From the NCBI GenBank assembly GCA_964438735.1, contig CAYTLW010000014.1, positions 19,635 through 83,634 of the forward strand: DNA of 64,000 bases, in the 5' to 3' direction. How positions within the stretch are numbered: position 1 is the first letter of the stretch; each line of letters opens with the position of its first letter. The notes under the pieces were generated by a model. It made no database searches. It was not told the origin of the DNA and saw only the letters and a list, made by a program, of their open reading frames with translations. The DNA comes from an uncultured Enterobacteriaceae bacterium. Lineage in GTDB: Bacteria; Myxococcota_A; UBA9042. Made by a program: the position numbers and the translations under genes. This document shows, in pieces, positions 26,756-59,424 of this stretch.

Positions 26756-26768
26756 GGAGGACCCGACG

Positions 26769-27500: not shown

Positions 27501-27513
27501 TCGGAGGCCACCC

Positions 27514-29973: not shown

Positions 29974-30039
29974 TCACAGGGCCACGATCAGATCGATTGG
30001 CGACGTCCAGGCGACGTCGACTTTGAGAAGGAAGGTGTC

Positions 30040-31998
30040 ATGAACCGTTCGACGCTCATCATGTTGGTGCTCTTCGTCGTGCTGCTCGGTGCCTGGTTGA
30101 TCTCCCAGCGGCCGGCGACGAGCGAAGGTCCGCCGCCCCTGGCTGTGGAGGGCTTCGTCGAGGGGGTCTCGTTCCAGGACATCAAGATCCTGAACAAGGA
30201 CGAGGACTCGCCATATACGAAGTTCATCGTGGAGCGGCAGGGCAGCAAGGTGGTCATGGAGCTGCAGCCGGGGCAGGAGAAGGTCAAAGCTGGCGAAAAG
30301 AAGTGGAAGGCCGTGCACACCGACGCCGACGGGGAAAAACTCGAGACCTGGGGCCAGGCCTACCGGGTGCGCCTGTGGAACCAGGCGCTGGCGTTGAGCT
30401 TCCGCTCCTCCTATTCCTTCGAAGCCACCGACGCCGAGCTCGCCGAGTACGGCCTGGCGCCGGACAATGCCGTGACGTTCATCGCCGAGGGCGCCGGACG
30501 CACGGTCAAGCTCACGGTCGGCAAGGTCGACAAGACCGGCGAGGGCGACACCGACGCCACCACCTGGGTCATGAACCCGGAGGTGCCCAAGGTGGTCTAT
30601 CAGGTGGCCGGACGCGACCTGCGCACCGAGTTGGCAGCGCCGTGGAAGGACATTCGCGAGCGCAAGCTCTTCGAGTGGAAGCTGCCCGAGGTCGACCGCA
30701 TCGAGCTGGTCAATCCCAAAGATACGCGCACCGCCAAGGTCGTCATGACCCGGCCGCCGCTGACCGCGGAGCAGAAGAAGAAGCTGGCCGAGGGCCCCAA
30801 AGACAAGGACGCCAAGGACGCCAAAGACCCCAAGGACCCCAAGGCCGACAAGGATGACAAGGAGATCCGCAAGGCCAGCGAGGGCTGGATGATCGCCGAG
30901 CCGACCGGCTATCCGCCCGGCGATATCGGCGACTGGCTGGAGTCCCTGGAGCGCATGCAGGCGACGGATTACAGGCCCTTCAAGGATGGCAAGCTGCCGC
31001 CGGATTCAGGGCTGGGCAAAGACAAGGGCGTGCGCGTGACCGTGAGCGGCGGCGGCAAGAGCGACACCTTCATCATCGGCGGCAAAGGCGACAACAAGGA
31101 CGGCGACGTCTGGGTGCAGGTGGAAGGACGCACAGAACTCTACCTGGTCGCCTCCTGGTCGACCGATCAGTGCATCAAGAGCCTGGATGGGGTGCGCGAT
31201 CTACGGCTGCTGGGTGCAGGCAAGTCGTCCAAGTCCAGCTACCTGATCGCCAACGGCGTCAAGGGAAGCCTGAAGATGACCCGCAAAGACGGCAAGTGGG
31301 ACGCCGGCAAGGCCGAGATCGACGCCAAGAAGATCGACGACTTCTTCAGCGACCTCGACGGCGTCCGGGTCGAGTACGACAGCGCCAGGACGCGCGCCGC
31401 AGCTGGACTGGACAAGCCCGAGTACACCTACGAATTCGAGGTCGAGGGCAAGGCGACTCGCCTACAGGTCGGCGCCAAGCAGGGCGAGGATACCTATGGC
31501 GCGCTTGGCGATGGCGACGTATTCAAGTTCCAGAGTTGGAATGCGGATCGCCTGCGCAAGGGCCCGAATGACTTCGCCGACAAGCACCTGGTCGAGTTCG
31601 ATAAGGGCGAGGTGAAGGGCCTGAGCATCGAGCCGCCGGACGGCAAACCCGTGCCCATGAACAAGGGACCGGATGGCAAATGGCAGGTCACGGGCAAGCC
31701 GGACATCAAGCTCAAGGACCCCGCGCTGGAGGGCATCCTCGCAGCCGTGGTCGAGATCAACTACGACGCCAAGATTCCCAGCCGCAAACTGGCGGAATTC
31801 GGCCTCGACAAAGGCTATCACAGCATCACCTTCAATCTGAACCTGGGTCGCAAGGTGCAAGTTCGCGTTTCCGCAAAGGAACAAGACGGAAAGCCCTACG
31901 TCTCCGTGCATAAACAGGGCAAACTGGTCCAGATTGGCGTGATCGCCTCGATGAATGCCGGATCTCTGAAGAAAACGCTTGATGACTTGAAGGGTTGA
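30040..31998 (+). CDS. DUF4340 multi-domain protein
   Basis: N-terminal TM. Recurring LAEYGL/LPPDSGL/AAAGLDKP/LAEFGLD + 'L.VG' units, in the typical position after gldG. Confidence 0.8.
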   Translation: MNRSTLIMLVLFVVLLGAWLISQRPATSEGPPPLAVEGFVEGVSFQDIKILNKDEDSPYTKFIVERQGSKVVMELQPGQEKVKAGEKKWKAVHTDADGEKLETWGQAYRVRLWNQALALSFRSSYSFEATDAELAEYGLAPDNAVTFIAEGAGRTVKLTVGKVDKTGEGDTDATTWVMNPEVPKVVYQVAGRDLRTELAAPWKDIRERKLFEWKLPEVDRIELVNPKDTRTAKVVMTRPPLTAEQKKKLAEGPKDKDAKDAKDPKDPKADKDDKEIRKASEGWMIAEPTGYPPGDIGDWLESLERMQATDYRPFKDGKLPPDSGLGKDKGVRVTVSGGGKSDTFIIGGKGDNKDGDVWVQVEGRTELYLVASWSTDQCIKSLDGVRDLRLLGAGKSSKSSYLIANGVKGSLKMTRKDGKWDAGKAEIDAKKIDDFFSDLDGVRVEYDSARTRAAAGLDKPEYTYEFEVEGKATRLQVGAKQGEDTYGALGDGDVFKFQSWNADRLRKGPNDFADKHLVEFDKGEVKGLSIEPPDGKPVPMNKGPDGKWQVTGKPDIKLKDPALEGILAAVVEINYDAKIPSRKLAEFGLDKGYHSITFNLNLGRKVQVRVSAKEQDGKPYVSVHKQGKLVQIGVIASMNAGSLKKTLDDLKG

Positions 31999-39343: not shown

Positions 39344-39454
39344 CTCTCCCGTTGTCCCAGCGCGTGCACGCTGCCGACCGCGCTTGACAGGGGCGGTCCG
39401 GGGCAGGACATTGCGTGCGCCCAAATCGCGCCGTGCGCGCTTTTCCGGAGCATC

Positions 39455-40288
39455 ATGATGAACAAGATCGCCGTCGCTCTCGCCAGTTTCGTCGCCATCG
39501 CCATGCTGGCGACCGCGGCCCTGGCCGCCGACCCGGTCAAGAAGATCAAGCTCAGCGATCCCGCGGGTGACGACAAGGGGCCGGGAACCTACATCTACCC
39601 GTCCAACTCGGTCTACACCGCCGGCAGCTTCGACCTGCGCGGCCTGCAGGTCATCGACAAGGGCTCCACGATCGAGTTCCGCGTCGAGGTGGGCACCCGG
39701 GTCAAGGATCCCTGGAACTCCAAGGAGTGGGATGGCAACGGCTTCTCGCTCCAATTCGTACAGATCTACATCGACACCGATCACAAGGCGGGCTCGGGCT
39801 TCACCAGCACCCTGCCTGGGCTGGGCAAGCTCAGCCTGGCCGCCGACCAGGCCTGGGATAAGGTCGTACTGATCTCACCGCAGGGTAAGCAGCGCCTCAA
39901 GTCCGAGGTGCGCTACAAGGCCGGCAAGATGGCCAAGGCAGCCGTGATCCCGAAGACGACGCGGGCCCGGGGCAAGAAGTTGATCGCCGTGGTCAAGAAG
40001 TCCGACCTCGGCCAGCCCACCAAGGCCTGGGGACTGCAGGCTGTGATGCAATCCAACGAAGGCTTCCCCAAGGGCAAGGACATCCTCACGCGGCCGGTCA
40101 ACGAGGTTCGCGGCGAGCATCGCTTCGGCGGCGGACACGACACGAGTTGCGATCCGCAGGTGATCGACATCTTCGCCGGCAAGGCTGCCGGCTCGGCCTC
40201 AGAGGTCGCCGCTCAGAAGAGCGCGCTGGCCTGGAAGTGCGGCAGCAAGGTGGCCACCCTGCCGATGATCTACCCGTTCGCTCGCTGA
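39455..40288 (+). CDS. exported glucodextranase-C / DOMON-like domain protein
   Basis: Signal peptide, SDPAGDDKGPGTYIYP...FDL...DPWN...GFSLQ.VQIYID. Confidence 0.85.
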   Translation: MMNKIAVALASFVAIAMLATAALAADPVKKIKLSDPAGDDKGPGTYIYPSNSVYTAGSFDLRGLQVIDKGSTIEFRVEVGTRVKDPWNSKEWDGNGFSLQFVQIYIDTDHKAGSGFTSTLPGLGKLSLAADQAWDKVVLISPQGKQRLKSEVRYKAGKMAKAAVIPKTTRARGKKLIAVVKKSDLGQPTKAWGLQAVMQSNEGFPKGKDILTRPVNEVRGEHRFGGGHDTSCDPQVIDIFAGKAAGSASEVAAQKSALAWKCGSKVATLPMIYPFAR

Positions 40289-42260: not shown

Positions 42261-42275
42261 GCAAGGGGGCACTGG

Positions 42276-43358
42276 ATGAGCAAGTTCTCGGAGTCAATCG
42301 ACAAAGCCAAGAACAAAGTCAAAAAGGCCACCGATGACGCGGCCAAAGACCTGAAGAAGGCACGCGAAGACGGCGAAAAGAAGATCGACGAGGCGAAGAA
42401 GACCGCCGACAAGAAGATCGACGACAGCGGTCTGCCGGATCCGGTCAAAAAGGCTGCCAAAGACGCGACCAAGGCCGGCCACAAGGCCGCCAAGAAGGCC
42501 GTCGACGAGGGCAAGAAGAAGGCCAAGGAAGCTGTCGAAGAGGCTGAGAAGAAGGCCCACGAGGCGATCAAGGAAGCCGAGAAGAAGGCTGACGAGGCCA
42601 TCGCCGAGGCCGAGAAGTTCGCCAAGAACGAGGTCAAGAAGGCCAGCGATAAGCTCAAGGACATCATCGACGACTCCAACCTGCCCGGGCCCTTGAAGGA
42701 CCTGGCCAAGAAGGGTGTCGACGAGCTCAAGAAGCTGGCCGACAAGGGCATCGACGACCTCAAGAAGGAAGCGTCGGGCATGGTCGACGACCTCAAGAAG
42801 GACGCCGACGAGATGGCCTCACACCTCAAGGACAAGGCCCTGGAGGTGCTCGGCTTCGAGAAGGAGAAGCCGGCCGTCAAGCCGCCCAAGCCGCCAGCGG
42901 TCAAGCCGCCAGCGACCACCAATACGTCGCGAAAGTTCGATCACCAGGGCGTATTCCGCTTCAAGGTACAGCTTGGCAGCATCCAGGCCGGCGCGTTCAC
43001 CGCGGTGGACGGCCTGACCGCCGAGATCGAGCCCATCGAGTACCAGGGCGGCATGGACATGTACTCGCGCCAGATCCCCGGTCGGCCGAAGGTCTCGCCG
43101 GTGGTGCTCAAGAAGGGTTGGATCAACACCGCCCTGCTCTGGGACTGGATGCGCAAGACCATGGAGGGCGAGCTGAAGTTCGAGAACATCAGCCTGACCC
43201 TGGTGGCCGACGACAATCAGACCGAGCTGGTGCAGTACGACTGCCTGGACGCCTGGCCGTCACGCTGGAATGGCTTCCAGCTCGACGCCTCGAGCAGCAA
43301 CGCCATGCTCGAAGAGCTGGAGCTGCAGGTCCGCGAGGTCAAGCGCATCAAGGGCTGA
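42276..43358 (+). CDS. fusion: N-terminal 11-mer K/A/D/E helical repeats + C-terminal T4 gp19-like / eCIS tail-tube domain
   Basis: C-terminal FRFKVQL...F..VDGL..EIEPIEY.GG......IPG.PK...VVLKKGW.....LWDW......AWPSRWNG..LDA......EELEL matches the gp19/Afp1-type tube pattern. Confidence 0.88.
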   Translation: MSKFSESIDKAKNKVKKATDDAAKDLKKAREDGEKKIDEAKKTADKKIDDSGLPDPVKKAAKDATKAGHKAAKKAVDEGKKKAKEAVEEAEKKAHEAIKEAEKKADEAIAEAEKFAKNEVKKASDKLKDIIDDSNLPGPLKDLAKKGVDELKKLADKGIDDLKKEASGMVDDLKKDADEMASHLKDKALEVLGFEKEKPAVKPPKPPAVKPPATTNTSRKFDHQGVFRFKVQLGSIQAGAFTAVDGLTAEIEPIEYQGGMDMYSRQIPGRPKVSPVVLKKGWINTALLWDWMRKTMEGELKFENISLTLVADDNQTELVQYDCLDAWPSRWNGFQLDASSSNAMLEELELQVREVKRIKG

Positions 43359-46789: not shown

Positions 46790-48550
46790 TCAGTCGATGC
46801 CGCCAAATGGATCGTCGTTCTTCTTCTTCTTCGGCTTTGGCTTTGGCTTCGGCTTCGGCGCGGCTTTCTTTTTCAGGGGCGCAGTGATCTTCGGGATGCG
46901 ATTGGCGACCAGCACCTTGGGCTCGAACTTCAGCTCCAGGTCTTCGTACCCATCCAACTTGACCACGTACACGGCGTCCGGATCTTTGACCGTGAGCTGT
47001 TTTTCGTAAGGCGTGGTGCCCAACTCCATGTTGTTGAAGAAGATGCGGGCGCCGGGCGGGGTCGACTCGATGACGACCTTGTGCTTCTCAGCGGCCTTCT
47101 TGCGGGCGTCCTCCGCGGCGGCCTTCTTGCGCTCGGCTTCGATGGCTTTGCGGGCGGCTTCAGCGGCTTCCTTGCGGATGCGTTCGTGGTCGACCTTGGG
47201 CTCGGGTGCCTTGGGTACGGCCGCGATGGCGGTCTTGGGCGTCGACTCGCCGCCACCGTTCTGCATGGCCACGGCCACGACCGCACCGACGGCCAACACG
47301 GCCAGGATCAGCAGCACGATCAGCGTCTGGTTCGAGCCACTCTCCTGCGGCGGAGCCTGAGGCGGCGGCGGCGCTGGCCTTGCGGCAGGACTCGGCGGAC
47401 GCAGCACGGTCGCCGCATCGAGCGTATCCAGCGCAACCGTGGCTTCGCTGGCCACGGCGGCGGCCCGGGCAGCGCCCGTATCCATGGCCACAGTGGCTTC
47501 CGCTTCCGTTGCCGGCACCGGGACGTCGCCAACGTGATCGATGGCTACCGTCTTTTCGGGTTCGCTGTCGTCGGTAGAGATGGACTCCATGGCCCGGGTG
47601 GCCTCTTCGGAGGCCGGCGGGATGGTCGACGGGCGAGCTGGCGTCATGGCCGCCGCGGGCGTGTAATTGCCCGCTCGGGTCGCGCCCTGCAGGCCCAACA
47701 TCGCCTCGTCGATCGACATGACGACCGCCTCGGCGTTCTGGTGTCGATTCTCCGGGCGCTTCTGGAGCAGCTTGAAGATCAGGGCGTCGACAGCCTCCGG
47801 CACGACGATATCGGGCGCCACCTCGTCCAACGCCGGCGGCTCCTCCTGGACGTGCTTGATGGCCACGGCAATGGGCTCGTCGGCGGTGAAGGGCGGCCGC
47901 CCGGTCACGCACTCGAACAGGATCACGCCGAGCGAGTACAGGTCGGAGCGATTGTCCAGCCGCTTGCCCTGCGCCTGTTCGGGCGAGAGGTAACGCGGGG
48001 TGCCGAACATCTTGCCGGCCTGGGTGAGATTGGCGTTCTCATCTTCGAGAAACTTGGCGATGCCGAAGTCGATGACCTTGACGAAGTCCTTTTCGCCATA
48101 GATCTCGCAAACGAAGATGTTGTCCGGCTTCAGGTCACGGTGCACGATGCCCTTGGAGTGGGCTTCGGCCAGGGACTTACAGACCTGGCGCATGATGTAG
48201 AGCGCCCGCTCCACGTCGACCCGTCCGCGACGCAGGATGGCGGTCAGGTCTTCGCCGGTGAGGAACTCGATCACCATGAAGATGTGACCGGCCGGATCGC
48301 GGCCGAAGTCGAGTACCGAGATGGTGTTGGGATGGCGCAGCTGGTTGGCAGCGCGGGCCTCCTGCTCGAAGCGGATGACCTGCTTTTCGTCGGAGACCAG
48401 GTGCGGCGCCAGGACCTTGACGGCGACCACGCGCTCGCTCATCTGCGAGTCGGTGGCCCGATACACGGTGCCCATGCCGCCCTGGCCCAAAAGCGCGCCG
48501 AGCTCGTAGCGGCCCGCGAGGGTCTTGCCGACCAGGTTGACTTGATCCAT
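46790..48550 (-). CDS. Hanks-type Ser/Thr protein kinase with TM and extracellular PEGA domain
   Basis: LGQGGMGTVY, VAVKVL, HRDLKPDN, DFGIAK, GTPRYLSPEQ, TM, VVIESTPPGARIF...LGTTP. Confidence 0.97.
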   Translation of the reverse strand: MDQVNLVGKTLAGRYELGALLGQGGMGTVYRATDSQMSERVVAVKVLAPHLVSDEKQVIRFEQEARAANQLRHPNTISVLDFGRDPAGHIFMVIEFLTGEDLTAILRRGRVDVERALYIMRQVCKSLAEAHSKGIVHRDLKPDNIFVCEIYGEKDFVKVIDFGIAKFLEDENANLTQAGKMFGTPRYLSPEQAQGKRLDNRSDLYSLGVILFECVTGRPPFTADEPIAVAIKHVQEEPPALDEVAPDIVVPEAVDALIFKLLQKRPENRHQNAEAVVMSIDEAMLGLQGATRAGNYTPAAAMTPARPSTIPPASEEATRAMESISTDDSEPEKTVAIDHVGDVPVPATEAEATVAMDTGAARAAAVASEATVALDTLDAATVLRPPSPAARPAPPPPQAPPQESGSNQTLIVLLILAVLAVGAVVAVAMQNGGGESTPKTAIAAVPKAPEPKVDHERIRKEAAEAARKAIEAERKKAAAEDARKKAAEKHKVVIESTPPGARIFFNNMELGTTPYEKQLTVKDPDAVYVVKLDGYEDLELKFEPKVLVANRIPKITAPLKKKAAPKPKPKPKPKKKKNDDPFGGID

Positions 48551-48790
48551 GGAGCCGCCTGTAACGGGAACGTCGGACCGCGCCGCCCTACCCCGTTTAC
48601 CGGTTTGGCGCCAAGCCCGGGGGCCTCGCGAGGTGCAGTATAGTACAGGGTCGGACGACCCTGGCAAACGGTCCGCTGGGGCCCGTCTTCCACTGTCGAC
48701 GGACCTGGGCTAGGATGGCGTCCGCTGTTTCGGCCCGCTGCGCCGACTGCGTGGGCCGGGCGCAGCAACGTTCTCCAGGAGGCCGTATCC

Positions 48791-49432: not shown

Positions 49433-51214
49433 ATGAACTCCTATCGCGCCCCAAGGCAAGAGCTGCGCGCGCTGACCGCTGTGATGGCCTGCCTGGTCCT
49501 CTCCGCCTGCGCCGTTGCCGACGTCGAGCCGGTTGGCGACGGCCCCCTGGGCCTGTCCATCCGCGCCCTTTCGAGCACCTGCAGCGGCACGCCCAACGCC
49601 AATCCCTTCCAGGACGTCAAGAACATCGCCATCAGCGTGCGGGCCGAGGATATCGAGGCTTTCGGCCAGAGCGTCACGCTGAAGGGCAAGTCGATCAAGG
49701 TCGCTGAAGTGCCGGCCGGCAGTGGCCGCGAAATCACCCTCCTGGGCAAGAACGCAGCCGGCAAGAAGCTCTGGTTTGGCCGCAAATCTGGGGTCAAAGT
49801 GGTCAAGAATACGACCACGAACCTCGACATCACCTTGATGGCCCTGGACGCCTTTACCTGTGTCAGCCCGGTCTCGGCCAAAGCCAGCAGCGTGATCTTC
49901 CCGTCGGTGACCCGCTTCGCCAACGGCAAGGTGCTCATCACCGGCGGTTTCGCCCTGGCCAAGACCAGCGGCAAGAACCTGCTGCTCACCCAGCCGCTGG
50001 ATCGGGCGTACATCTTCGACGCCAACACCGGCAAGATGCGCGAGCTGAAGAACCAGGAGCGCATGAACGAGGGCCGTGGCGGACATAGTGCGGTCTACCT
50101 GCCGGCCAGCAATCGGGTGCTCATCGTCGGCGGCGCCAGGGAGATGACAGCGCCCACCAACAAGTCGGGTCCGCCGACCTGGCAGCCGGCCAAGGCGACG
50201 AACATCACCTACGAGATCTTCGACGTGGCGACCGAGAAATTCCTCAAGCCCTTCGACGCCTCGTTGGGCCACTCGGTCAAGCGGGTCTTCCCCAACTTGA
50301 TGGCCCTGGCGGGCGACTATGTGGTCTCTTTGGGTGGCGCCCAGTGGCCGACCAGCCTGACCGCCGATCAACAGACGTACCTGAACTCGGACCTCTACGA
50401 TCCGCAGGCGCCTTTCGATCCCACGCTCAACAGCAAGGACGAGCGGCTGGGTGCCTTCGTGAAGAATGGCGCCGCCCTGCCGTTGACCGAGGTGCGCGCG
50501 GGCGCGGCGCTGGCGTTCGTCGGTACCACGGCGCTCGGTGTCAGCAAGTACCTGATCTGGGGTGGCGGCGGCACGGTGGCCGAGGTGTTCACCGAATCAT
50601 CCAGCCCCGGCGACGGCACCTTCGACAACACCTACGTCATCGAGGGCGACATCATCAAGAAGAAGGGCAGCCTCTACTTCTCCAGCCTGACCTCGTTGGG
50701 CGCTTCGGCCGGCAATGACGGGCGCTTCCTGTCCATCGGCGGCATCCGCCACGACGGCAAGAAGTGGCTCGCTCCCAGCGCCGACGACGCCTACCTGGTG
50801 GTGCTGACCACGCCCGACAAGGGCAAGAAGCGGATCAATACCATCAGGATCTCGGGCCTCGGCGCCGGCATCTACATGCACCAGGCCAGCCTCACCGACG
50901 ACAATCACGTCCTGGTCAGCGGCGGCTTCAACAAGTTCGGACAGCCCTCGTCCGTGACCATGCGGACCTTCGACATCAGCCCCATTCAAGACAAGGCGAA
51001 CATGGACAAGGCCGCCGCCGGCAAGCTGAAGCTGAGCCTGAAGGAGCCCGCCTCGGCGAAAGCCTTCGTCAAGCGCGGCGGTCATGGCGCCGTGCGCCTG
51101 AACAACGATTGCATCCTGGCATTCGGCGGGGTCACCGACCTCGTCGACCTGCTCAAGACCGGCGAGGCGGCAAGCGACATTTACTGCCCGCAACACCTGG
51201 ATCCGGATCTGTAG
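49433..51214 (+). CDS. kelch/beta-propeller lipoprotein
   Basis: VLSA-C lipobox. Repeated blades LITGGF, LIVGG, LIWGG, LSIGG, LVSGG, LAFGG. Confidence 0.82.
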   Translation: MNSYRAPRQELRALTAVMACLVLSACAVADVEPVGDGPLGLSIRALSSTCSGTPNANPFQDVKNIAISVRAEDIEAFGQSVTLKGKSIKVAEVPAGSGREITLLGKNAAGKKLWFGRKSGVKVVKNTTTNLDITLMALDAFTCVSPVSAKASSVIFPSVTRFANGKVLITGGFALAKTSGKNLLLTQPLDRAYIFDANTGKMRELKNQERMNEGRGGHSAVYLPASNRVLIVGGAREMTAPTNKSGPPTWQPAKATNITYEIFDVATEKFLKPFDASLGHSVKRVFPNLMALAGDYVVSLGGAQWPTSLTADQQTYLNSDLYDPQAPFDPTLNSKDERLGAFVKNGAALPLTEVRAGAALAFVGTTALGVSKYLIWGGGGTVAEVFTESSSPGDGTFDNTYVIEGDIIKKKGSLYFSSLTSLGASAGNDGRFLSIGGIRHDGKKWLAPSADDAYLVVLTTPDKGKKRINTIRISGLGAGIYMHQASLTDDNHVLVSGGFNKFGQPSSVTMRTFDISPIQDKANMDKAAAGKLKLSLKEPASAKAFVKRGGHGAVRLNNDCILAFGGVTDLVDLLKTGEAASDIYCPQHLDPDL

Positions 51215-51250
51215 AGCAGATTCGCGGAACTCCGTCCCGGAGGACACGTC

Positions 51251-52666
51251 ATGAGCCATAAGGAGCGCGCCAAGGGTGGCCGAGGGGGTCGCCGACCGAG
51301 TCGCACGACCCGGTTCCTGGCAGCGATCTGCGCCATCGCCCTGCTGCAGGTGCACTGGGTCGGCCTGGTGCAACACGGCCCCTGGATCGCCGAGGTGAAA
51401 GCCCAGGCGATCGTGACCAACACCATGGCCGTGCTCGTGGTTCCGCCGAACCGGCGCAACGTCAAGCGAGCCATCGCCCTGGAGCGCCTGCTGGGCAGCT
51501 ACGTGCCGCGCCTGGAGCAGGTGGTGGCGTTCGAGCTGTCGCCGGTCGAGGGCGTAGAGCAGGAAGGCAAGATCGCCGAGCTGGTGGAGCAGTCCCTGCG
51601 CGCGCTCCTGCTGCGCACACCGCAGCGGGCAAGCGACCGACTCAAGGCCGCCAAGAAGCTGCTCAACAAGTACCCGAGCGCCGGCGATGTGCGCCTGTAT
51701 GCGCGCTTCTTCAAGGCGCTGTCGCTGGTCGCCCTGGCCCGGCAGAAGCTGGTCGAATCCCGCAACGCGATGCTCAAGTCGGTGGTGCTCTTCCCGAGCC
51801 AGGCCGAAGAGGAGTACGTCGCCTACGGCTCGCTGGCGCGCGACCTCTTCCGCACGGTCAAGACCACCTATGAGGGCGCGCCCACCGGCGACCTGCTCAT
51901 CGGCAGCAAGCCAAAGTCTGCTCAGCTCTGGGTGGACGGCACCTACCGCGGCACCACCCCGCTCAAGGTCTCCGACCTTCCCATCGGCGATCATCGCCTC
52001 ACGGTGCGAGCGCCGGGCATGACGGCCGAGCGTCGCTTCGTCACGGTGAACGCTGCCAAGCCGGTCAGGGTCAAGGTCGCCTTGAAGCCCGCCCCCTTCC
52101 ACGAGGATTTGCGCCAGGGTCGCTCGGTGTTGATCGCCAACTTCAACCAGCCGACGGTGATCGAGGATCGCATCCGCGAGCTGCGCAACGAGCTGGGCAC
52201 CGATCAGATCATGGTGGTGCGGGCCGGCTTCACCCGTCAGCAGACCGAGATGAAGGGCTACTTCCTGGGCGCCGATGGCGCCTTCAAGAAGGTCCAGGCG
52301 GTGATCCCCAAGGACGAGAACTACCTGACCGCCAACGCCAAGTTCGTCGCTGAATCGGCCGGTGCCAAGTTGCTGCCAGACCCGGGCAAGCAGCCACTGG
52401 ACCATCGTAAGAGCGTCGTCGTGGCGTCCAAGAAGATCGCCAGCTCGGCGGCCGACGCGGCCATCGACCCCAACGCGCCCCTGTTCCAGTCCGACAAAGA
52501 GGTCGAGGAGCCCATCACCGGCAAGTGGTGGTTCTGGGCCGGCGTGGGTGGCGGTGTGCTGCTCCTGACGGGCGGTGCCTTGTTGCTTCTCGGCGGCAAA
52601 ACCGAGGGGCCGGGCAAGGCCACCGGCACGTTGCAGATCGGCCTGCACAAGCCCTCGGACGGCTGA
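51251..52666 (+). CDS. PEGA-domain membrane-anchored protein
   Basis: LLIGSKPKSAQLWVDGTYRGTTPLKVSDLPIGDHRLTVRAPG. C-terminal PITGKWWFWAGVGGGVLL. Confidence 0.85.
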   Translation: MSHKERAKGGRGGRRPSRTTRFLAAICAIALLQVHWVGLVQHGPWIAEVKAQAIVTNTMAVLVVPPNRRNVKRAIALERLLGSYVPRLEQVVAFELSPVEGVEQEGKIAELVEQSLRALLLRTPQRASDRLKAAKKLLNKYPSAGDVRLYARFFKALSLVALARQKLVESRNAMLKSVVLFPSQAEEEYVAYGSLARDLFRTVKTTYEGAPTGDLLIGSKPKSAQLWVDGTYRGTTPLKVSDLPIGDHRLTVRAPGMTAERRFVTVNAAKPVRVKVALKPAPFHEDLRQGRSVLIANFNQPTVIEDRIRELRNELGTDQIMVVRAGFTRQQTEMKGYFLGADGAFKKVQAVIPKDENYLTANAKFVAESAGAKLLPDPGKQPLDHRKSVVVASKKIASSAADAAIDPNAPLFQSDKEVEEPITGKWWFWAGVGGGVLLLTGGALLLLGGKTEGPGKATGTLQIGLHKPSDG

Positions 52667-52669
52667 TCC

Positions 52670-53470
52670 GTGGCGCATTTCGCGACACAGCACCCGATTC
52701 GAAGCTGCCTGATCGCGGCGCTGATCATCGGCTTGTTGCCGCTGGAGGCGGCGGCGGCGGATAGCTGGATGAAGCTGCGCCGCAAGGGCGTCAAAGCTGT
52801 GCTCGAGGCGTCGAAGAAGGCCGCTTCCGCGGAACCGTGGCGCGCGACCTGGCGGATTGACGACGCCAAGGCAGGTGCCCTGAAAGGTCTGCAGGTCTCC
52901 CTGCGGGTGGCCAGGGTCGCGGCGGATAAGAGCAAGCCCGAGCGGTTGGCCACGGTCATCAAGCTGTCGGGGATGCCCGCCCTGGCAGGTGTCGGCGTGG
53001 CCACTGTGGGCGACGAGGTCTGGCTCCGATCACCGGGCACCGCCAAGCCGCTCAGGGCCACGGCGAAGGCCCTCTTCCAGCCCTTGCCCGGCGTCGACGT
53101 GCCGCCCGGACTGCTGGCCGTGGCCGGCCTGGCCGGACACTACGACGGTAGCCTGGCCGGCGAATTCGGTGGCAGCGCCGTGATCGTTCTGCAGCCGCGC
53201 TACACCGGCGGCAAGGGTTGGGCGCGCATGAAGATCGGCATCTCCAAGCGCACGCTGATGCCGACCATGGGCGAATACAACGACCGCAACGGCAAGGCGC
53301 TGGGCCGCTGGCTGTGGCTGCAGACGCGCATGAAGGGTGAGTTGATGGTCGCCGGCAGACTCCGAATTCGCACCATGAAGCGTGAAAAGCCCATCGACCT
53401 GGAGTTGGTGAGCCTCGAACGCGGGCCTGCGATCGGGCGCTTGCCGGTCGCGCTCAAGGCGCTCGAGTAG
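52670..53470 (+). CDS. LolA-like outer-membrane lipoprotein-sorting protein
   Basis: Signal peptide. DEVWLRSPG, IVLQPR, ISKRTLMP..GEYNDRNGK pattern. Confidence 0.6.
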   Translation: MAHFATQHPIRSCLIAALIIGLLPLEAAAADSWMKLRRKGVKAVLEASKKAASAEPWRATWRIDDAKAGALKGLQVSLRVARVAADKSKPERLATVIKLSGMPALAGVGVATVGDEVWLRSPGTAKPLRATAKALFQPLPGVDVPPGLLAVAGLAGHYDGSLAGEFGGSAVIVLQPRYTGGKGWARMKIGISKRTLMPTMGEYNDRNGKALGRWLWLQTRMKGELMVAGRLRIRTMKREKPIDLELVSLERGPAIGRLPVALKALE

Positions 53471-53584: not shown

Positions 53585-54922
53585 ATGGCAGGCAGATCGC
53601 GCTCATTGCGGATGCTCACCGTCGTCGTTGTGCTGGCAGGCCTGGGCCTGTCGCCGCAGATGGCCGAAGCCGCCGAAGTCACGGACGTGCTGGACGCCTT
53701 CGACTTCGAAAACAACAACCCGTATGACCTGAGCATGCGCCTGCGCTTCGGCCAGGACACGCGCAGCGCGGTCATCGCCCGCGAGATGCGCTGCCTGAGT
53801 GCTGATCAGATCGGCGCCAATTATTGCGCCGACGGCTCGCGAACGATCTTCGCCCGAGAGCTCGCCTACTCGCGCACTCGTCAGACCATGTTCATCGACA
53901 CCCGCGTCGGTCTGCACAAGGACGTGGAGCTCTATGCAACCTTCCCGATCGTGATCAGCGACTCGTGGGAGCACGGCTATGTGGACGGCGTCGGGCCGGG
54001 CAACTCGACGATTCACCCAGCCAGCGACCAGGCGGCCATCTTCGCCGGCGACTACAAGAGCACCGACCGCGGTGGCTTCGGTGACCTCTCTGTCGGCCTG
54101 AAGTGGTCGCCCATCAACTACTACCGCGACCCCGCGACCGCGACCTGGGTCCTGGGCGTGGAGTACATGGCGCCCACGGGCACGCCCATGGAGGCGAGCA
54201 ATGATGGCGTCGGCCTGGGCATCCACGAGCTGCGCTTCTACACCACGATTTCGCGCCGGGCGCTGGGCATCATCGAGCCCTTCTTCAACCTGCACGGCAA
54301 CCTGCGCTTCGGCGCCAACGACAGCCTCTTCGTCAGCCACGGGGCGACCCAGACCCGGTCGACGCCGGGCAGCTCCATCGGCACCCAGTTCGGCACCGAG
54401 ATCATCCCCTGGGAGGACCTGAAGCAGGACGCCCGGGTCGAGCTCGAGTTCGGCTTCCGCATGGACTACATATTCCGCGGCCGCGAATACACCGAGATCT
54501 GGGAGGCGCTGGCCTCGGCCGACAACCCCTGCCAGCCGGAGAAGGGGTGCATCAACACGCTCCATCACAAGAGCGAGGTCGACAAGGCCACGCAGCAGCA
54601 CACGCGCACCGATGGCGTGACCGACGTGGAGCAGTACGGCCAGTTCACCGGCTGGGCATCGCTGCACTACCAGCCGATCCGCCAGTTCCAGCTGAGCGCT
54701 TCGTTCGCCTACGCTGTGGACACCCCGCACTTCATCACTTTCGGCGACTACGGCAAGGATCTCGACGGCAAGAGTGGCGTGCAGCCGGCGAACTCCGAGG
54801 ATCCGCCCAAGAACGAGTACAGCCCGACGTTCCTGCCAGCGTTGGACAATCCAGGCAACCGCCTCCGCCTGCAGGATGCGGCGACCTGGACGTTGATGCT
54901 CTCCGTTTCCGGCAAGCTGTAG
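53585..54922 (+). CDS. probable outer-membrane beta-barrel protein
   Basis: Signal peptide (AEA-AEV), GGFGDLSVGLKW, amphipathic strands, C-terminal LMLSVSGKL. Confidence 0.7.
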   Translation: MAGRSRSLRMLTVVVVLAGLGLSPQMAEAAEVTDVLDAFDFENNNPYDLSMRLRFGQDTRSAVIAREMRCLSADQIGANYCADGSRTIFARELAYSRTRQTMFIDTRVGLHKDVELYATFPIVISDSWEHGYVDGVGPGNSTIHPASDQAAIFAGDYKSTDRGGFGDLSVGLKWSPINYYRDPATATWVLGVEYMAPTGTPMEASNDGVGLGIHELRFYTTISRRALGIIEPFFNLHGNLRFGANDSLFVSHGATQTRSTPGSSIGTQFGTEIIPWEDLKQDARVELEFGFRMDYIFRGREYTEIWEALASADNPCQPEKGCINTLHHKSEVDKATQQHTRTDGVTDVEQYGQFTGWASLHYQPIRQFQLSASFAYAVDTPHFITFGDYGKDLDGKSGVQPANSEDPPKNEYSPTFLPALDNPGNRLRLQDAATWTLMLSVSGKL

Positions 54923-55090
54923 CGCCTCAAACCCCAACCCAGGCCCCTCGATGCGTGCCGGCATGACCGGTGGCGCCACAATCTTCCATTGAATCGTGAG
55001 CCGGCAGCGTCTATCGTGCGGCGGCCTCGCGCAGGGGCGACGCGCGGGGGGGAGCGCGCGCGTCGCGCGCAACGAGGGCGAGGAGGGGCG

Positions 55091-57214
55091 ATGTCGAGGC
55101 CCGGATTGTTGAGAATGACCGGCATCTTTGGCGACATTCGAGGCCAACTGATGGTCGCGTGTCTGGCTGCCATGGTCGCCGGCTGCAGCGGCACCTCCGG
55201 CACGGCGCCAGCTCAGTTGCAGCCATGCTCGGTCCCCGGTGATTGCCCGGCCGGCCTGACGTGCACCGACGGCGCCTGCGTGGCGGAGTCGAATAACGGC
55301 GGCGGCGGAGCCAAGTTCGGTGAAGATGGCGGCGCCACCACCGGCGGCCTGACAGACGGATCGGGGACGGCGGAGAGCTGCAATGCCGACGCCGACTGCA
55401 ACGACAACCTCGCCTGCACCAAAGACACCTGCGTCGCCGGCAACTGCCAGCACGATGGCGCTGATACCTGCTGCAAGGTGCCTGCCGACTGCGTCTACAA
55501 GGGCGCCGATCCCCAGTGCCGGGACGCGGCTTGCGTGACCGGACTCTGCGTCTTCGCGGTCAAGAATATCGAGGGCTGCGGCTGCTTCTCGCCGACCGAT
55601 TGCGACGATGGAAACTCCTGCTCCGTCGACGGCTGCCTGCTCAACGAGTGCAGCTACGACGTCTACCAGAACCCGACCAACCCGGCCGACAACAGCGACC
55701 CCTCCGATCCGACCAGCAAGTGCTGCGCGGCCGATGTCGATTGCGATGACGGCGACGAGGGCACCTGGGAGAGCTGCGTATCGTTCCGCTGCGTGGTGGA
55801 GAAGCTGATCTTGTGCTCGGCCGACAAAGATTGCGACGACGGCGATGCCTGCACCAACGGTTCATGCCACGACGGCAAATGCGTCTTCGCGCCCAAACCG
55901 GGCTGCTGCAAGGACACCGCCGACTGTTACGACGGCAGCGCGTGCAGCATCGACACCTGCAAAGATGGCGCCTGTGCCTGGTTCCCCAGCACCGCCGAGG
56001 GCTGCTGCAAGGCCGACGTGGACTGCGACGATGGCGTGCCCTGCACCAAGGACGGCTGCAACGCCAAGTACAACTGCGAGAACGCTCCGCAAGCCGGCTG
56101 CTGCATCAGCGCTGGCGAGTGCGACGACGGCAACACCTGCACGCTGGATTATTGCGACAAGGGCGAGTGCAAGCACAGCAAGCCGCCCGAGGGCTGCTGC
56201 AAGACCGATGGCGATTGCGTCTCCAGCGATCCCTGCGCCAAGGGCACCTGCAGCAACGGCGACTGCAGCTTCAGCAAGATCGCCAACTGCTGCGTCAGCG
56301 CGGCCGACTGCGACGACGGCGTGGGCTGCACCGTGGACAGCTGCATCGCCGGCCAGTGCAAGCACGAGTCCGGTGGCCAGAAGTGCTGCAGCGTCAACCT
56401 GGAGTGCGACGACAGCAACTCCTGTACTGACGACATGTGCAACGGCGGCGTATGCGTCAATACGCCCAAGCCGGGTTGCCAGACCAACAAGTGCGGCGAT
56501 GGCAAGTGCGACGCCAACGAGTCGGCGCTGACCTGCCCGCAAGATTGCGGCTCGTCGGGCAACGACTCCTGCCTGGGCAAGTGCGATAAGTTCGACCCCC
56601 TGGCCAAGTGCTCCTGTTCGCAGTACTGCACGCTGCTGAACAACTGCTGCCCCGACTACAAGCAGGTCTGTGGCGGCGGAGGCGGCACACCCAACAAGAC
56701 GTGCAAGGGCAAGTGTGGTGGCCAGGGCACCGGCGGCTGCTGGTGTGACAGCACGTGCAGCCAGAGCGGCGATTGCTGCCCCGACTTCAAACAGGAGTGC
56801 GGTGGCGGCGGCACGCCGACCAAGACCTGCCAGGGCAAGTGCGGCGGCGAGGGCACCGGCGGCTGCTGGTGCGACGCCAAGTGCTCCAGCTACGGCAACT
56901 GCTGCCCCGACTATCAGCAGGTCTGTGGCGGCGGCACCGGCGGCGCGGATTCATGTGCCGGAAAGTGTGGCAAATACGACGGATCGGCCAAGTGCCAATG
57001 CGACACGGGCTGCAAGAACTACAAGGATTGCTGCGCCGATTATGACAAGCAGTGCGGCGGCGGCGGCGGCGGCAACAACCAGTGCGGCGCCAATCCCGCC
57101 TCCACCTGCAAGGGCAAATGCGGCAAGTTCTCCGCCGGGGCCTCGTGCCAGTGCGACTCCAGTTGTCAGCAATTCAAAGACTGTTGCCCTGACATCGGCC
57201 CCTGCTGCCCCTGA
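55091..57214 (+). CDS. Cys-rich lipoprotein: ~11 CDDGNxCTxDxC repeats + five somatomedin-B-like domains
   Basis: AGGAGG RBS, MVAG-C lipobox, repeats read directly from the translation. Confidence 0.88.
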   Translation: MSRPGLLRMTGIFGDIRGQLMVACLAAMVAGCSGTSGTAPAQLQPCSVPGDCPAGLTCTDGACVAESNNGGGGAKFGEDGGATTGGLTDGSGTAESCNADADCNDNLACTKDTCVAGNCQHDGADTCCKVPADCVYKGADPQCRDAACVTGLCVFAVKNIEGCGCFSPTDCDDGNSCSVDGCLLNECSYDVYQNPTNPADNSDPSDPTSKCCAADVDCDDGDEGTWESCVSFRCVVEKLILCSADKDCDDGDACTNGSCHDGKCVFAPKPGCCKDTADCYDGSACSIDTCKDGACAWFPSTAEGCCKADVDCDDGVPCTKDGCNAKYNCENAPQAGCCISAGECDDGNTCTLDYCDKGECKHSKPPEGCCKTDGDCVSSDPCAKGTCSNGDCSFSKIANCCVSAADCDDGVGCTVDSCIAGQCKHESGGQKCCSVNLECDDSNSCTDDMCNGGVCVNTPKPGCQTNKCGDGKCDANESALTCPQDCGSSGNDSCLGKCDKFDPLAKCSCSQYCTLLNNCCPDYKQVCGGGGGTPNKTCKGKCGGQGTGGCWCDSTCSQSGDCCPDFKQECGGGGTPTKTCQGKCGGEGTGGCWCDAKCSSYGNCCPDYQQVCGGGTGGADSCAGKCGKYDGSAKCQCDTGCKNYKDCCADYDKQCGGGGGGNNQCGANPASTCKGKCGKFSAGASCQCDSSCQQFKDCCPDIGPCCP

Positions 57215-57222
57215 TAGCTTCG

Positions 57223-58776
57223 ATGCAAGAGCACTTGAGGACGGCGCTGCTGATCGCGCTCGTGGGCGGGGCTCTGTGCTGCCGCGAGCCGCCGCCCGAT
57301 GAAAAGCCGGGCGCCTTTTGCGTCGATCGAAGCGACTGCTCCGACGGCCAGACCTGTCGCAACAGCGCCTGCGGGCCGTGCACGAACTCCAATGAGTGCG
57401 ACGGCTATCTCTGCCTGGACGGCCAGTGCCAGCAAGGCGTCGGCTGCAGCTGCGCGCCGGGTGCGCGCTGCACCAACGCCAGCGCCTACTGCAAGGACGC
57501 CGGCGGCTACGACGTGGCGGAAGAAGTGTGTACCGACCGCTACGACTGCGATGACGGCAACCCGTGCACAGCGGATGAGTGCGGCAGCAGCGGCAAATGC
57601 ACCCACGGCACGGAGACCAATCCGCCGCCCGGTGCCCCGCAATGTTGCGCCAAGGTGAGCGATTGCGACGATGGCCACCCCTGCACCGAGGACGGCTGCC
57701 TCGACCACCAATGCAAAAACCTGCCCGAGCCGGGCTGCTGCGTGGCCCACATGGAGTGCCTGGACGACGATCCCTGCACCACGGACTCCTGCGTCGATAA
57801 CAGCTGCAAACACAGCCACCACGGCCTGCCCTGCTGCAAGGAAGCGCTGGACTGCATCGATGACGATCCGTGCACCTTGGAGGCCTGCGCTGGCGGCGCC
57901 TGCGTCGCGCCGCGCAAGCCCGACGCCAAAGTATGCCCGTGTTGGAACCTGGATGACTGCGACGATGGCAATCCCTGCACACTCGATACCTGCGTGGCGG
58001 GCAAGTGCCTGTACACCGTCGATCCGCAGGCGCTCAACACCAACCCATCCTGCTGCGATGAGCACCTGGACTGCGCCGATGGCAGCGCGTTGACCTCCGA
58101 TCGATGTGTGCTCAATCGATGCAGCCGCAGCGTAGCCAAGGTCTGCAAAGCCAAAGCGGAGTGCGACGACGACAACACCTGCACCAAGGACGCGTGCGTG
58201 GGCGGTGTCTGCGCCAACTCGCTCATCGTCGGCTGTTGCACAGACAACCTGCAATGCAGCGATGGCAACCTGTGTACCGATGATAAATGCAAGGGTGGCA
58301 AATGCAGTCACAGCGCCAAGCTGGCCAAGGGCTGCTGCACTTCGTCCACCCAGTGCAATGACGGGGTCAAGTGCACCAAGGATTCCTGTGCCTCGTTCAA
58401 CTGCGTGCACAAACCCACCGCAGCCGACTGCTGCGGTAGCGACAAACATTGCGATGACGGGGAGTGGTGCACGGACGACTACTGTGAAGGCGGCAAGTGC
58501 AAGCACTACAAGGCCGCCAAGAGCTGCTGCATCAAGAACTCTGAATGCAACGACGGCAACGCCTGCACCATCGACGTCTGCCTGGCCGGTCAGTGTTCCG
58601 CGAGCTGGATCAGCGATTGTTGCACCTCCGCTGCCATGTGCGACGACGGCAACAAGTGCACCAAGGATGCGTGCAGCCCGGCCAAGGCGTGCGTCAACAC
58701 CGTGATCGCCGGCTGCTGTTTTCACAATGGCAACTGCAAGCCGCCCAAGAAGTGCAAGAAGGGCAAGTGCGGCTAG
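57223..58776 (+). CDS. exported Cys-rich protein with ~12 CDDGNxCTxDxC repeats
   Basis: Signal/lipobox-like N-terminus, ~31-aa Cys repeats, 8 nt after the previous gene. Confidence 0.88.
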   Translation: MQEHLRTALLIALVGGALCCREPPPDEKPGAFCVDRSDCSDGQTCRNSACGPCTNSNECDGYLCLDGQCQQGVGCSCAPGARCTNASAYCKDAGGYDVAEEVCTDRYDCDDGNPCTADECGSSGKCTHGTETNPPPGAPQCCAKVSDCDDGHPCTEDGCLDHQCKNLPEPGCCVAHMECLDDDPCTTDSCVDNSCKHSHHGLPCCKEALDCIDDDPCTLEACAGGACVAPRKPDAKVCPCWNLDDCDDGNPCTLDTCVAGKCLYTVDPQALNTNPSCCDEHLDCADGSALTSDRCVLNRCSRSVAKVCKAKAECDDDNTCTKDACVGGVCANSLIVGCCTDNLQCSDGNLCTDDKCKGGKCSHSAKLAKGCCTSSTQCNDGVKCTKDSCASFNCVHKPTAADCCGSDKHCDDGEWCTDDYCEGGKCKHYKAAKSCCIKNSECNDGNACTIDVCLAGQCSASWISDCCTSAAMCDDGNKCTKDACSPAKACVNTVIAGCCFHNGNCKPPKKCKKGKCG

Positions 58777-58831: not shown

Positions 58832-58860
58832 TTGACAGGTCCGGATCGGCCGCCAACAAT
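58832..58860 (+). promoter_or_regulatory. sigma70-like promoter
   Basis: TTGACA-N17-AACAAT upstream of the 58897-def-fmt run. Confidence 0.55.
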
Positions 58861-58896: not shown

Positions 58897-59424
58897 ATGA
58901 TCGACAACCTCAAGAACATCGCAGCACGTCGTCTGGGCAAGGTCCTGGCCTCGGACGTCACGCTCAAGGTGCTGTCCAATCGGCAGGTGCAGGGCGCCAT
59001 GTTGCGCGCGATCAATGTACGTGCCGAGGCGCGCGACCTGGTGGAGAGCCGGCTGCAGGGGGTGGCGACGGCCCTGGACCTGGTGACGCACGAAGACGTG
59101 GCCTCGCTCAAGCGCACGATTCGCGACATGGAAGACCAGATTGACGAGCTGCGCGACGAGCTCGACAAGGAGCGCGCCCCGGAAGCGGCCCCTGTTGCGG
59201 CACCGGCGCCGGCTGCGGCACCGGCCCCAGCGGCGGAAGCCGCGCCAGCACCGGCTGAAGAAACCGCCGTCGAGGCGCCGGCCCCCAAACCCAAAGCCAA
59301 ACGCAAGCGCAAGCCAGCCGCCAAGAAGGCCAAAGCCGCGCCCAAGAAGAAGACCGGTGGCAAGAAGGCCGCCGCGGCCAAGGGCACGCGCGCCAAGAAG
59401 GGCGCCGCGGCCAAGAAGGCGTAG
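58897..59424 (+). CDS. coiled-coil protein with A/P linker and K/A-rich histone-H1-like tail (PhaF/HBHA-like architecture)
   Basis: GGAG RBS, DLVTHEDVASLKRTIRDMEDQIDEL, PAAKKAKAAPKKK tail. Confidence 0.75.
   Translation: MIDNLKNIAARRLGKVLASDVTLKVLSNRQVQGAMLRAINVRAEARDLVESRLQGVATALDLVTHEDVASLKRTIRDMEDQIDELRDELDKERAPEAAPVAAPAPAAAPAPAAEAAPAPAEETAVEAPAPKPKAKRKRKPAAKKAKAAPKKKTGGKKAAAAKGTRAKKGAAAKKA

Follow-up and report, generated by a model that had tools for sequence, protein, structure and literature searches.

Five tandem somatomedin-B domains at the tip of a conserved stalked lipoprotein from uncultured Myxococcota

Somatomedin-B (SMB) domains are compact protein-binding knots, and they are treated as domains of the animal extracellular matrix and serum, where they are found at the N-terminus of vitronectin, as SMB1 and SMB2 of ENPP1-3 and in ENDOU/PP11. 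The present work concerns a gene encoding a 707-residue protein at positions 55091-57214 (plus strand) of a 64,000-nucleotide stretch of contig CAYTLW010000014.1 (positions 19,635 to 83,634; assembly GCA_964438735.1). This whole stretch is called the window hereafter. The protein bears five SMB units, which are almost certainly genuine SMB domains carried by a conserved bacterial lipoprotein. The Pfam family, the eight-Cys spacing and the CC-x-D-[FY] motif are shared with the animal domains; tandem units likewise occur in animal ENPP and ENDOU, and the fusion to hydrolases known from these proteins recurs in other prokaryotes. The window protein differs from the animal ones by its bacterial host, its carrier with a predicted N-terminal lipid anchor, its five units on poly-Gly hinges and its last unit, a ten-Cys variant devoid of the aromatic residue. 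Furthermore, the animal ligands (PAI-1, uPAR and integrins) do not exist in the bacterial setting.

In bacteria, the nearest functional precedents would, by analogy, be CglB, CglD and TraA of Myxococcus xanthus. TraA possesses a PA14-like polymorphic head at its N-terminal side and a C-terminal MYXO-CTERM anchor (PMC3325183). Like the protein studied here, it is a myxobacterial envelope protein with a Cys-rich stalk, a distal binding domain and an adjoining outer-membrane gene, whereas the window protein has a predicted N-terminal lipid anchor, a conserved C-terminal SMB head and repeats of the Dicty_CTDC type. CglB and CglD, two gliding adhesins, are outer-membrane lipoproteins with VWA/integrin-like domains of the type found in the animal extracellular matrix (PMC9946355; bioRxiv 10.1101/2023.10.19.562135), and they are an earlier case of Cys-rich lipoproteins whose display is assisted by outer-membrane barrels. 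Membership of the CglB type itself was rejected: Pfam detected no VWA domain in the window protein and no Glt genes adjoin the locus. Finally, Dicty_CTDC repeats have been described as N-terminal display modules of Myxococcota teneurin-like lipoproteins (bioRxiv 10.1101/2025.11.11.687626). In those proteins, as in ours, a Cys/Asp repeat of 23-24 residues forms an extracellular spacer, the score of the window protein lying below the family threshold.

The lipoprotein and its somatomedin-B units

The gene lies in an open reading frame (ORF) of 741 residues (54989-57214, frame +1). The ATG at 55091 is the start called in public assemblies, on record in three of them, and the stop codon occupies 57212-57214. 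The exact 707-residue protein is present on a 97.7-kb ENA metagenome contig, on a second ENA contig and on a Logan contig. Its parts are the following:

55091-55186 (+): signal peptide with the lipobox MVAG-C (Cys32) and Ser at +2; MSRPGLLRMTGIFGDIRGQLMVACLAAMVAGC fits the lipobox rule
55187-55378 (+): N-terminal tether, residues 33-96, a four-Cys motif followed by a Gly/Ser/Thr-rich low-complexity linker (from the translation)
55379-56455 (+): stalk, residues 97-455, 11 Dicty_CTDC-like Cys repeats (10 plus one degenerate in a regular-expression map)
56456-56563 (+): connector, residues 456-491, with one CGDGKC-x8-C-P-x-DCG mini-module (from the translation)
56564-56677 (+): SMB unit 1, DSCLGKCDKFDPLAKCSCSQYCTLLNNCCPDYKQVCGG, the most conserved unit; Pfam stretch 526-562 of the 741-residue ORF and match to PROSITE PS00524
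56696-56806 (+): SMB unit 2, CWCD type; PS00524 match
56822-56932 (+): SMB unit 3, duplicate of unit 2 (79% DNA identity; detected by the tandem-repeat program TRF)
56948-57061 (+): SMB unit 4, CQCD type, the unit modelled with AlphaFold2 and compared with Foldseek; PS00524 match
57062-57211 (+): terminal ten-Cys SMB cap, made of poly-Gly, an extra Cys (QCGANPAS), the SMB core and the end CCPDIGPCCP, a pattern common to the orthologues
57101-57211 (+): core of SMB unit 5, the terminal unit, CCPDIGPCC

The initial annotation had described five SMB-like units separated by poly-Gly linkers at the tip of a lipoprotein with a Cys-repeat stalk, and this description is borne out. All five units lie in frame +1 of the ORF, poly-Gly linkers are seen between them in the translation, and the array (residues 492-707) forms the extreme C-terminus, behind the 11-repeat stalk and farthest from the lipid anchor. 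Pfam Somatomedin_B (PF01033) recognized five stretches with a score of 88 bits, against a gathering score of 23.1 (E = 4.8e-25). The PS00524 signature, C-x-C-x3-C-x5-C-C-x-[DN]-[FY]-x3-C, matched exactly four units and nothing else in the six-frame translation of the window, in agreement with the four exact fits claimed at first. The fifth unit reads CCPDIGPCC; the announced Ile at the F/Y position and the CC end place it outside the signature.

The eight-Cys spacing C-x3-C-x7-9-C-x-C-x3-C-x5-CC-x6-C was found in all five units, and none of the Cys columns varies when 17 units of the target and its relatives are aligned. A comparison of SMB units offers about 35 alignable columns, nine of which are invariant, too few for a unit-level phylogeny of bacterial, protist and animal SMB domains. 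Units 2 and 3 had been called near-duplicates; they are indeed the closest pair, but the term was overstated, as their identity is 79% at the DNA level and 73% at the protein level (other pairs, 56-67% DNA). TRF reported a period of 126 bp over the array, with 2.3 copies and 76% matches.

When the head was compared with PDB sequences by phmmer, solely SMB-bearing proteins were retrieved, in alignments running Cys to Cys: ENDOU (2.5e-10), ENPP1 (9e-7), ENPP2/3 and, as an isolated SMB domain, vitronectin (1.5e-3). For unit 4, the 17-unit alignment gave an AlphaFold2 model with a mean predicted local distance difference test (pLDDT) value of 84.5. The top 50 Foldseek matches of this model in the PDB were all SMB domains. 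The best of them was the vitronectin SMB domain 1oc0_B, with a template-modelling (TM) score of 0.78 by query and 0.86 by target, a root-mean-square deviation of 0.9 A over 36 columns and 44% identity. Overall, the head is 33-44% identical to solved SMB domains and the predicted fold lies within 0.9-1.6 A of them. The modelled unit is thus predicted to adopt the SMB disulfide-knot fold.

At the other end of the protein, residues 1-32 contain Arg3 and Arg8 followed by an uncharged stretch leading to the lipobox, VACLAAMVAG-C32. This agrees with the PROSITE PS51257 rule: a basic n-region, an uncharged stretch and [LVI..][ASTG..][AGS]-C within the first 35 residues. At the equivalent place, the orthologues read LVGC, MAGC, LTAC, LSAC or TAGC, so the lipobox is conserved, as expected for the lipoprotein first proposed. 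The tether belongs to the most weakly conserved regions (3-36% identity to orthologues), on a par with the signal peptide.

The stalk repeats, of 23-24 residues, have the form (C)C-x5-DC-DDGN-x-C-T-x-D-x-C-x3-C. Pfam Dicty_CTDC (PF00526) scored 25.2 bits on the target and thus narrowly missed its gathering score of 27; the repeats would be borderline, divergent members of this family. The orthologue P0002 has a precomputed PF00526 tag, as do most of the homologues listed out of the 328 found, and the PF00526-bearing homologues listed carry many different head domains. Between stalk and head, the connector mini-module (CGDGKC...CPQDCG), to which Pfam gave no assignment, is present in one copy in the window protein and, as CG(D/N)GxC-x7-9-C-x2-DCG-x-C, in 4-5 tandem copies in the orthologues L026, L027 and L029.

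The mature chain of about 676 residues contains 115 Cys (17%), 14.6% Gly and 11.7% Asp. Besides the lipid-bearing Cys32, 114 Cys are left, an even number sufficient for 57 disulfides. Metal binding of the metallothionein kind was considered and rejected, as the protein is exported, its Cys count is even and it matches disulfide-knot families.

Orthologues and conservation of the head

Positional orthologues with 2-4 SMB units were found upstream of def-fmt at at least 10 Myxococcota metagenome loci, none of them in a cultured strain. Eight loci, from a genome scan described below, are syntenic with the window in the order PEGA, LolA-like, barrel, Cys-repeat+SMB lipoprotein, small gene, def and fmt. 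Across them, identities were 41-47% for the lipoprotein, 54-69% for the barrel and 52-61% for def. Three more loci, reached through protein matches, have the SMB lipoprotein gene upstream of def-fmt-proC.

The third-codon-position G+C content (GC3) of the lipoprotein gene is 0.85, against 0.80-0.89 for its neighbours. The 97.7-kb contig is bacterial and the gene sits between housekeeping genes, those of the window including argG, prs, dnaK, dnaJ, pepA, rlmN, def, fmt and a Ser/Thr kinase gene. The sequencing runs that contain the sequence are marine or seawater DNA metagenomes. Because of the matching GC3, the bacterial context and the conserved synteny, the gene is an old, vertically inherited member of the core neighbourhood of its clade. 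An artefact, whether through contaminating eukaryotic DNA, through chimeric assembly or through the very recent import of a gene from an animal, might be suspected from the fact that the only word-indexed match of the head is a eukaryote-like poly-Gly SMB protein beside XendoU fragments. However, the gene was assembled independently in several samples, its lipobox is bacterial, and synteny together with unit-level orthology extends across genomes whose def products are only 52-61% identical. Contamination or recent acquisition is ruled out on these grounds and on GC3, and we regard the probability of an artefact as practically negligible.

This unit-level orthology was established by comparing the units one by one with those of six orthologues. 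Unit 1 of the window matched best the first unit of every one of them (62-79%). For units 2 and 3, the best match was unit 2 in five of the six, with one exception each (45-76%); for unit 2 alone the values are 55-76% and the exception is the three-unit L037, whose last unit matches best. Unit 4 is closest to unit 3 of P0002 and P0127 (59-68%); for unit 5, the final unit matched best in five of the six (53-65%). Most likely, to judge from these pairings, a four-unit array would be ancestral and unit 2 would have been duplicated in the lineage of the window.

In a MAFFT alignment with the four closest orthologues, unit 1 was 76-79% identical while the stalk reached 46-52% in all four; unit 2 was 70-78% identical in the three that keep it. 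When the Cys columns were left out, the head still showed 62-73% identity against 35-42% for the stalk. The head is thus the constrained part of the protein, the stalk keeping little besides its framework.

All orthologues examined end with a special unit of the pattern (L/Q)CG..P..(S/T)C.G.CG...C.CD..C.....DCC.D....CC(G)P-end, or with a variant ending in CGCF. The extra Cys lies about nine residues upstream, and the final Cys is doubled in the ...CC(G)P-COOH form. The residue at the aromatic position is aliphatic or basic in most orthologues, Tyr in L031-L034 and Phe in the CGCF variants. Since every orthologue examined ends with such an equivalent unit, the Ile of unit 5 is part of a conserved ten-Cys cap and not a sign of decay. 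In this cap, a fifth disulfide would staple the upstream extension to the C-terminus.

The initial annotation had offered prey, host or kin cells as possible targets. The kin-cell option is disfavoured, because the conservation of the head (70-79% for units 1-2 in the closest orthologues, against 46-52% for the stalk) is the opposite of what a polymorphic recognition head would present. The corresponding model would be a TraA-like kin-recognition receptor, in which the SMB head mediates homotypic recognition between siblings and the neighbouring barrel acts as a TraB-like partner. The layout is superficially similar to that of TraA, in that the distal domain stands on a Cys-rich stalk and a gene for an outer-membrane protein lies next door (PMC3325183). 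However, the window protein has no PA14 domain and ends at ...CCP without a MYXO-CTERM tail, an OmpA domain is missing from the barrel, whose nearest folds are the FapF and COG4313 channels, and the head is the most conserved part instead of the most variable one. We consider such a receptor very unlikely.

Somatomedin-B domains in other genomes

When one genome per GTDB species was scanned for the SMB pattern, 59 SMB-encoding loci were found in about 35 genomes. These are mostly labelled Myxococcota, Myxococcales or Deltaproteobacteria and include two complete Sorangium genomes. Above the Pfam threshold, SMB domains were found on a Peptidase_C25 protein with propeptide, on a PAD_porph deiminase (peptidyl-arginine deiminase), on two trypsin-family proteases, on a subtilase (S8) fragment, on a lipoprotein with four SMB units and on Sorangium lipoproteins of about 190 residues. 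A Woesearchaeota protein (archaeal, 38% G+C; L013:4693-6123), S-layer-like in that it combines S_layer_C with one C-terminal SMB domain, also lies above this threshold; therefore, the domain is not confined to bacteria and eukaryotes. On these prokaryotic proteins, SMB is usually terminal, behind Pro/Thr or Gly linkers, and the CWCD form of units 2-3 predominates among the prokaryotic units read. The combination of a Dicty_CTDC-type stalk with SMB heads was encountered in our searches only in a small orthologue group (P0002, P0005, P0050 and P0127).

An exhaustive phmmer search with the head against 1.84 billion cluster representatives gave 778 proteins with E <= 1e-3, 191 of them with E <= 1e-10. 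Among the best 150 of these 778, bacterial proteins with lipoprotein signals, one of which (P0122) has 18 SMB units, are mixed with clearly eukaryotic proteins. The eukaryotic ones combine SMB with thrombospondin-type repeats, with a CUB/zona-pellucida-like architecture or with EndoU, the CUB/zona-pellucida-like call being made by eye on the sequences. In a word-indexed search, the head alone gave a single match, L068 (P0001), a eukaryote-like transcript fragment with three SMB units, also linked by poly-Gly, beside XendoU fragments. The linker style common to L068 and the bacterial array is either convergent or shared.

Wherever the SMB proteins are named, including the single-SMB Sorangium lipoproteins in RefSeq (WP_437670230.1 and WP_437806396.1), they are called 'hypothetical protein', and precomputed PF01033 tags exist on some of the prokaryotic proteins. 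Full-text literature searches retrieved no paper linking somatomedin B to Myxococcota or describing prokaryotic SMB domains. Prokaryotic SMB proteins are thus catalogued implicitly and not described. The reservation first attached to the novelty of the array, that such lipoproteins might already be catalogued as common in Myxococcota, holds in part: SMB is fairly widespread in Myxococcota metagenome-assembled genomes (MAGs) and tagged as PF01033, but the proteins are called 'hypothetical' and the searches yielded no publication on them.

Several genomes of the scan deserve mention on their own. Mix_mud12, a 'Myxococcota' MAG of about 50% G+C, has at least 10 SMB-tagged genes (L006, L008-L011, L016, L017, L019, L021 and L024), one encoding a gingipain-like Peptidase_C25; the tags stand behind Pro/Thr linkers and are usually C-terminal. 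In this lineage in particular, SMB seems to have expanded as a tag of secreted enzymes. Four short contigs with 540-770x coverage (L004, L005, L012 and L018), binned in a Desulfobacterales MAG, encode proteins with at least two SMB units; in L005 these are preceded by an N-terminal region which is beta-helix-like by eye and has no Pfam hit. That these contigs belong to a Desulfobacterales genome is doubtful. In addition, seven loci (L022, L028, L031, L044, L049, L054 and L060) are labelled 'uncultured Enterobacteriaceae' or 'Klebsiella pneumoniae' with 58-72% G+C, and L031 has the full Myxococcota-type locus (barrel, SMB lipoprotein, def and fmt). The labels of these MAGs look wrong.

Because SMB is a terminal tag on many secreted hydrolases, in parallel with animal ENPP and ENDOU, its distribution supports, by analogy, a role in targeting or binding. 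The target might be the producer itself: SMB would bind the cell's own envelope or exopolysaccharide, so that tagged enzymes stay on the cell and the lipoprotein with five SMB units staples a component to the outer membrane. The occurrence of SMB on Pro/Thr or Gly linkers at the end of many unrelated secreted enzymes in similar genomes, the at least 10 such genes of Mix_mud12 and a head conservation that would fit a conserved self ligand all speak in this direction. Nevertheless, no candidate ligand gene was identified, and the same pattern is equally expected if SMB targets the surfaces of prey or of substrates. Retention at the own surface seems to us quite unlikely.

Neighbouring genes and proposed function

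Two genes flank that of the lipoprotein:

53585-54922 (+): 12-stranded outer-membrane beta-barrel, 445 residues, ending 168 bp upstream of the SMB gene
57223-58776 (+): paralogous Cys-repeat protein, 517 residues, 12 Dicty_CTDC repeats (48.1 bits), 8 bp downstream

The downstream paralogue, in which Pfam detected no SMB domain, has a basic C-terminus and a signal that ends atypically in 'ALCC', and it is probably co-transcribed with the SMB gene. Because it is absent from the syntenic loci, it is a lineage-specific extra copy; in L026, L027, L029 and L037, the small gene directly follows the SMB gene.

The barrel is 64-69% identical in the closest syntenic loci and 54-55% in L031/L032/L034. 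Its family is well conserved and comprises 79 homologues, every named one being a protein of a Myxococcota MAG. Its AlphaFold2 model (pLDDT 91.2) has 12 strands and its best PDB folds, the FapF amyloid-secretion channel and a COG4313 channel, reach only a low TM score of about 0.4 by query. No Pfam family scored above threshold, and a weak Phenol_MetA_deg match (17.4 bits) is consistent with a FapF/COG4313-like fold; DUF560 and OmpA domains were not found by Pfam. Type 11 secretion (Slam) takes an adjacent outer-membrane protein of the DUF560 family as criterion (bioRxiv 10.1101/2024.09.26.615229). Without a DUF560 hit in the adjacent barrel, and with folds nearest to FapF and COG4313, the lipoprotein was rejected as a cargo of this pathway. 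One lineage with the SMB lipoprotein has no adjoining barrel, PEGA and Kelch genes, and the genes around two barrel homologues (38% and 27% identity) are unrelated ones, with no SMB lipoprotein among them.

Upstream of the barrel, a tight co-directional run (49433-53470, +) encodes Kelch-repeat, PEGA-domain and weak LolA-like proteins, preceded by a divergent Ser/Thr kinase gene with a PEGA domain (46790-48709, -). Several related MAGs show the whole kinase-Kelch-PEGA-LolA-like block in synteny. Searching the sequences of the barrel and of the LolA-like protein against the PDB retrieved nothing useful, and scans for promoters and terminators around the lipoprotein gene were uninformative. A small conserved gene (58897-59424, +), with a sigma-70-like site just upstream (58832-58860), separates the lipoprotein locus from def and keeps its position in all syntenic loci; the N-terminal half of its product is a coiled coil, and its tail is rich in Ala, Pro and Lys and resembles histone H1. 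No NCBIfam model was assigned to the seven locus proteins, the only two matches being weak, far below the cut-off and on this small gene.

Farther away, the ORF at 42261-43358 (+) encodes a long N-terminal coiled-coil/apolipoprotein-like region together with a Phage_T4_gp19 tail-tube domain (91 bits) and adjoins a Glucodextran_C protein (39344-40288) and an unassigned 663-residue ORF; the region could be part of a contractile-injection or tailocin-like element. At 26568-31998 (+), genes for an ABC-2 permease, ABC_transp_aux and DUF4340 stand in a row and resemble the GldF/GldG-type gliding-associated ABC transporter clusters.

Going beyond what is observed (domain identity, predicted fold, lipobox, order of parts, conservation and synteny), a course of events can be proposed for the lipoprotein. 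The precursor would be exported by Sec, then cleaved and lipidated at Cys32 by the Lgt/Lsp route, and the remaining 114 Cys would be oxidized in the periplasm into up to 57 disulfides. From the membrane outwards, the mature protein would present a flexible Gly-rich tether, then a stalk of 11 Dicty_CTDC-type repeats, Asp-rich and possibly stiffened by Ca2+, and outermost, at its C-terminus, a flexible pentavalent SMB head on poly-Gly hinges. It would be located at the outer membrane or the cell surface.

Since SMB domains are protein-binding knots and units 1-2 and the cap are the best conserved, the protein is probably a stalked, multivalent SMB binding protein, an adhesin or receptor, for a conserved rather than a strain-specific ligand. 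For the array in particular, we put a role as the binding or adhesion head at about even chances.

The same chain of Cys repeats and SMB units might instead be a building block of a cross-linked extracellular matrix or cell coat, without a foreign target, like the matrix proteins with Dicty_CTDC repeats in Dictyostelium. Some homologues with these repeats are named 'extracellular matrix protein' by NCBI; the extreme Cys, Gly and Asp contents, the tandem arrangement with a second repeat protein devoid of SMB, and the core-genome position beside def-fmt in many genomes, which suggests a housekeeping role in the envelope, point the same way. However, the N-terminal lipid anchor and the single-copy layout of stalk plus head resemble a tethered receptor more than a polymerizing subunit, the head is better conserved than the stalk, and the mature protein has no free odd Cys available for intermolecular cross-links. 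A structural matrix or sheath protein is therefore judged unlikely.

Several observations weigh against the proposal of an SMB-based binding protein displayed at the surface. The AlphaFold2 prediction for unit 4 may owe something to SMB structures present in the training set. The hot-spot residues of vitronectin for PAI-1 and uPAR are Asp22, Leu24, Tyr27 and Tyr28; by eye, unit 4 (CQCDTGCKNYKDCC) keeps the Asp and one Tyr and not Leu24/Tyr27. To be exposed at the surface, the chain with its 57 disulfides would have to traverse the outer membrane in folded form. Folded export, for instance by the type II route, is known for other myxobacterial surface proteins, and no type II secretion genes were found in the window. 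As one lineage lacks the barrel and distant barrels have other neighbours, the adjacency of the barrel and LolA-like genes is synteny at the clade level only and not evidence of dedicated export. Lastly, no RNA runs contained the sequence, all runs being DNA metagenomes.

A broader hypothesis would make SMB an old prokaryotic surface-targeting module native to Myxococcota, used on secreted enzymes and on the def-linked stalked receptor. The eukaryotic SMB domains (vitronectin, ENPP, ENDOU) would then derive from a bacterial source, as has been proposed for teneurins, and the ten-Cys cap would represent a separate, hitherto unrecognized SMB subtype that has a binding function of its own. Taken as a whole, this hypothesis is speculative and rather improbable.

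In Myxococcota, SMB is a genuine, ancient and fairly widespread domain, and what is new lies in its carrier, with a predicted N-terminal lipid anchor, a Dicty_CTDC-type stalk, a pentavalent head and a conserved ten-Cys terminal cap. SMB is hereby added to the 'metazoan' adhesion modules (VWA, integrin-like and teneurin) of social and predatory bacteria, in line with an established trend in Myxococcota, and the question of the origin of the domain is reopened. The default binding partner of an SMB knot can be sought more simply in bacteria, where neither glycosylation nor serum factors intervene, and the family offers small disulfide-stabilized binding scaffolds. For an uncultured marine and freshwater myxobacterial clade, the lipoprotein represents a candidate adhesin.

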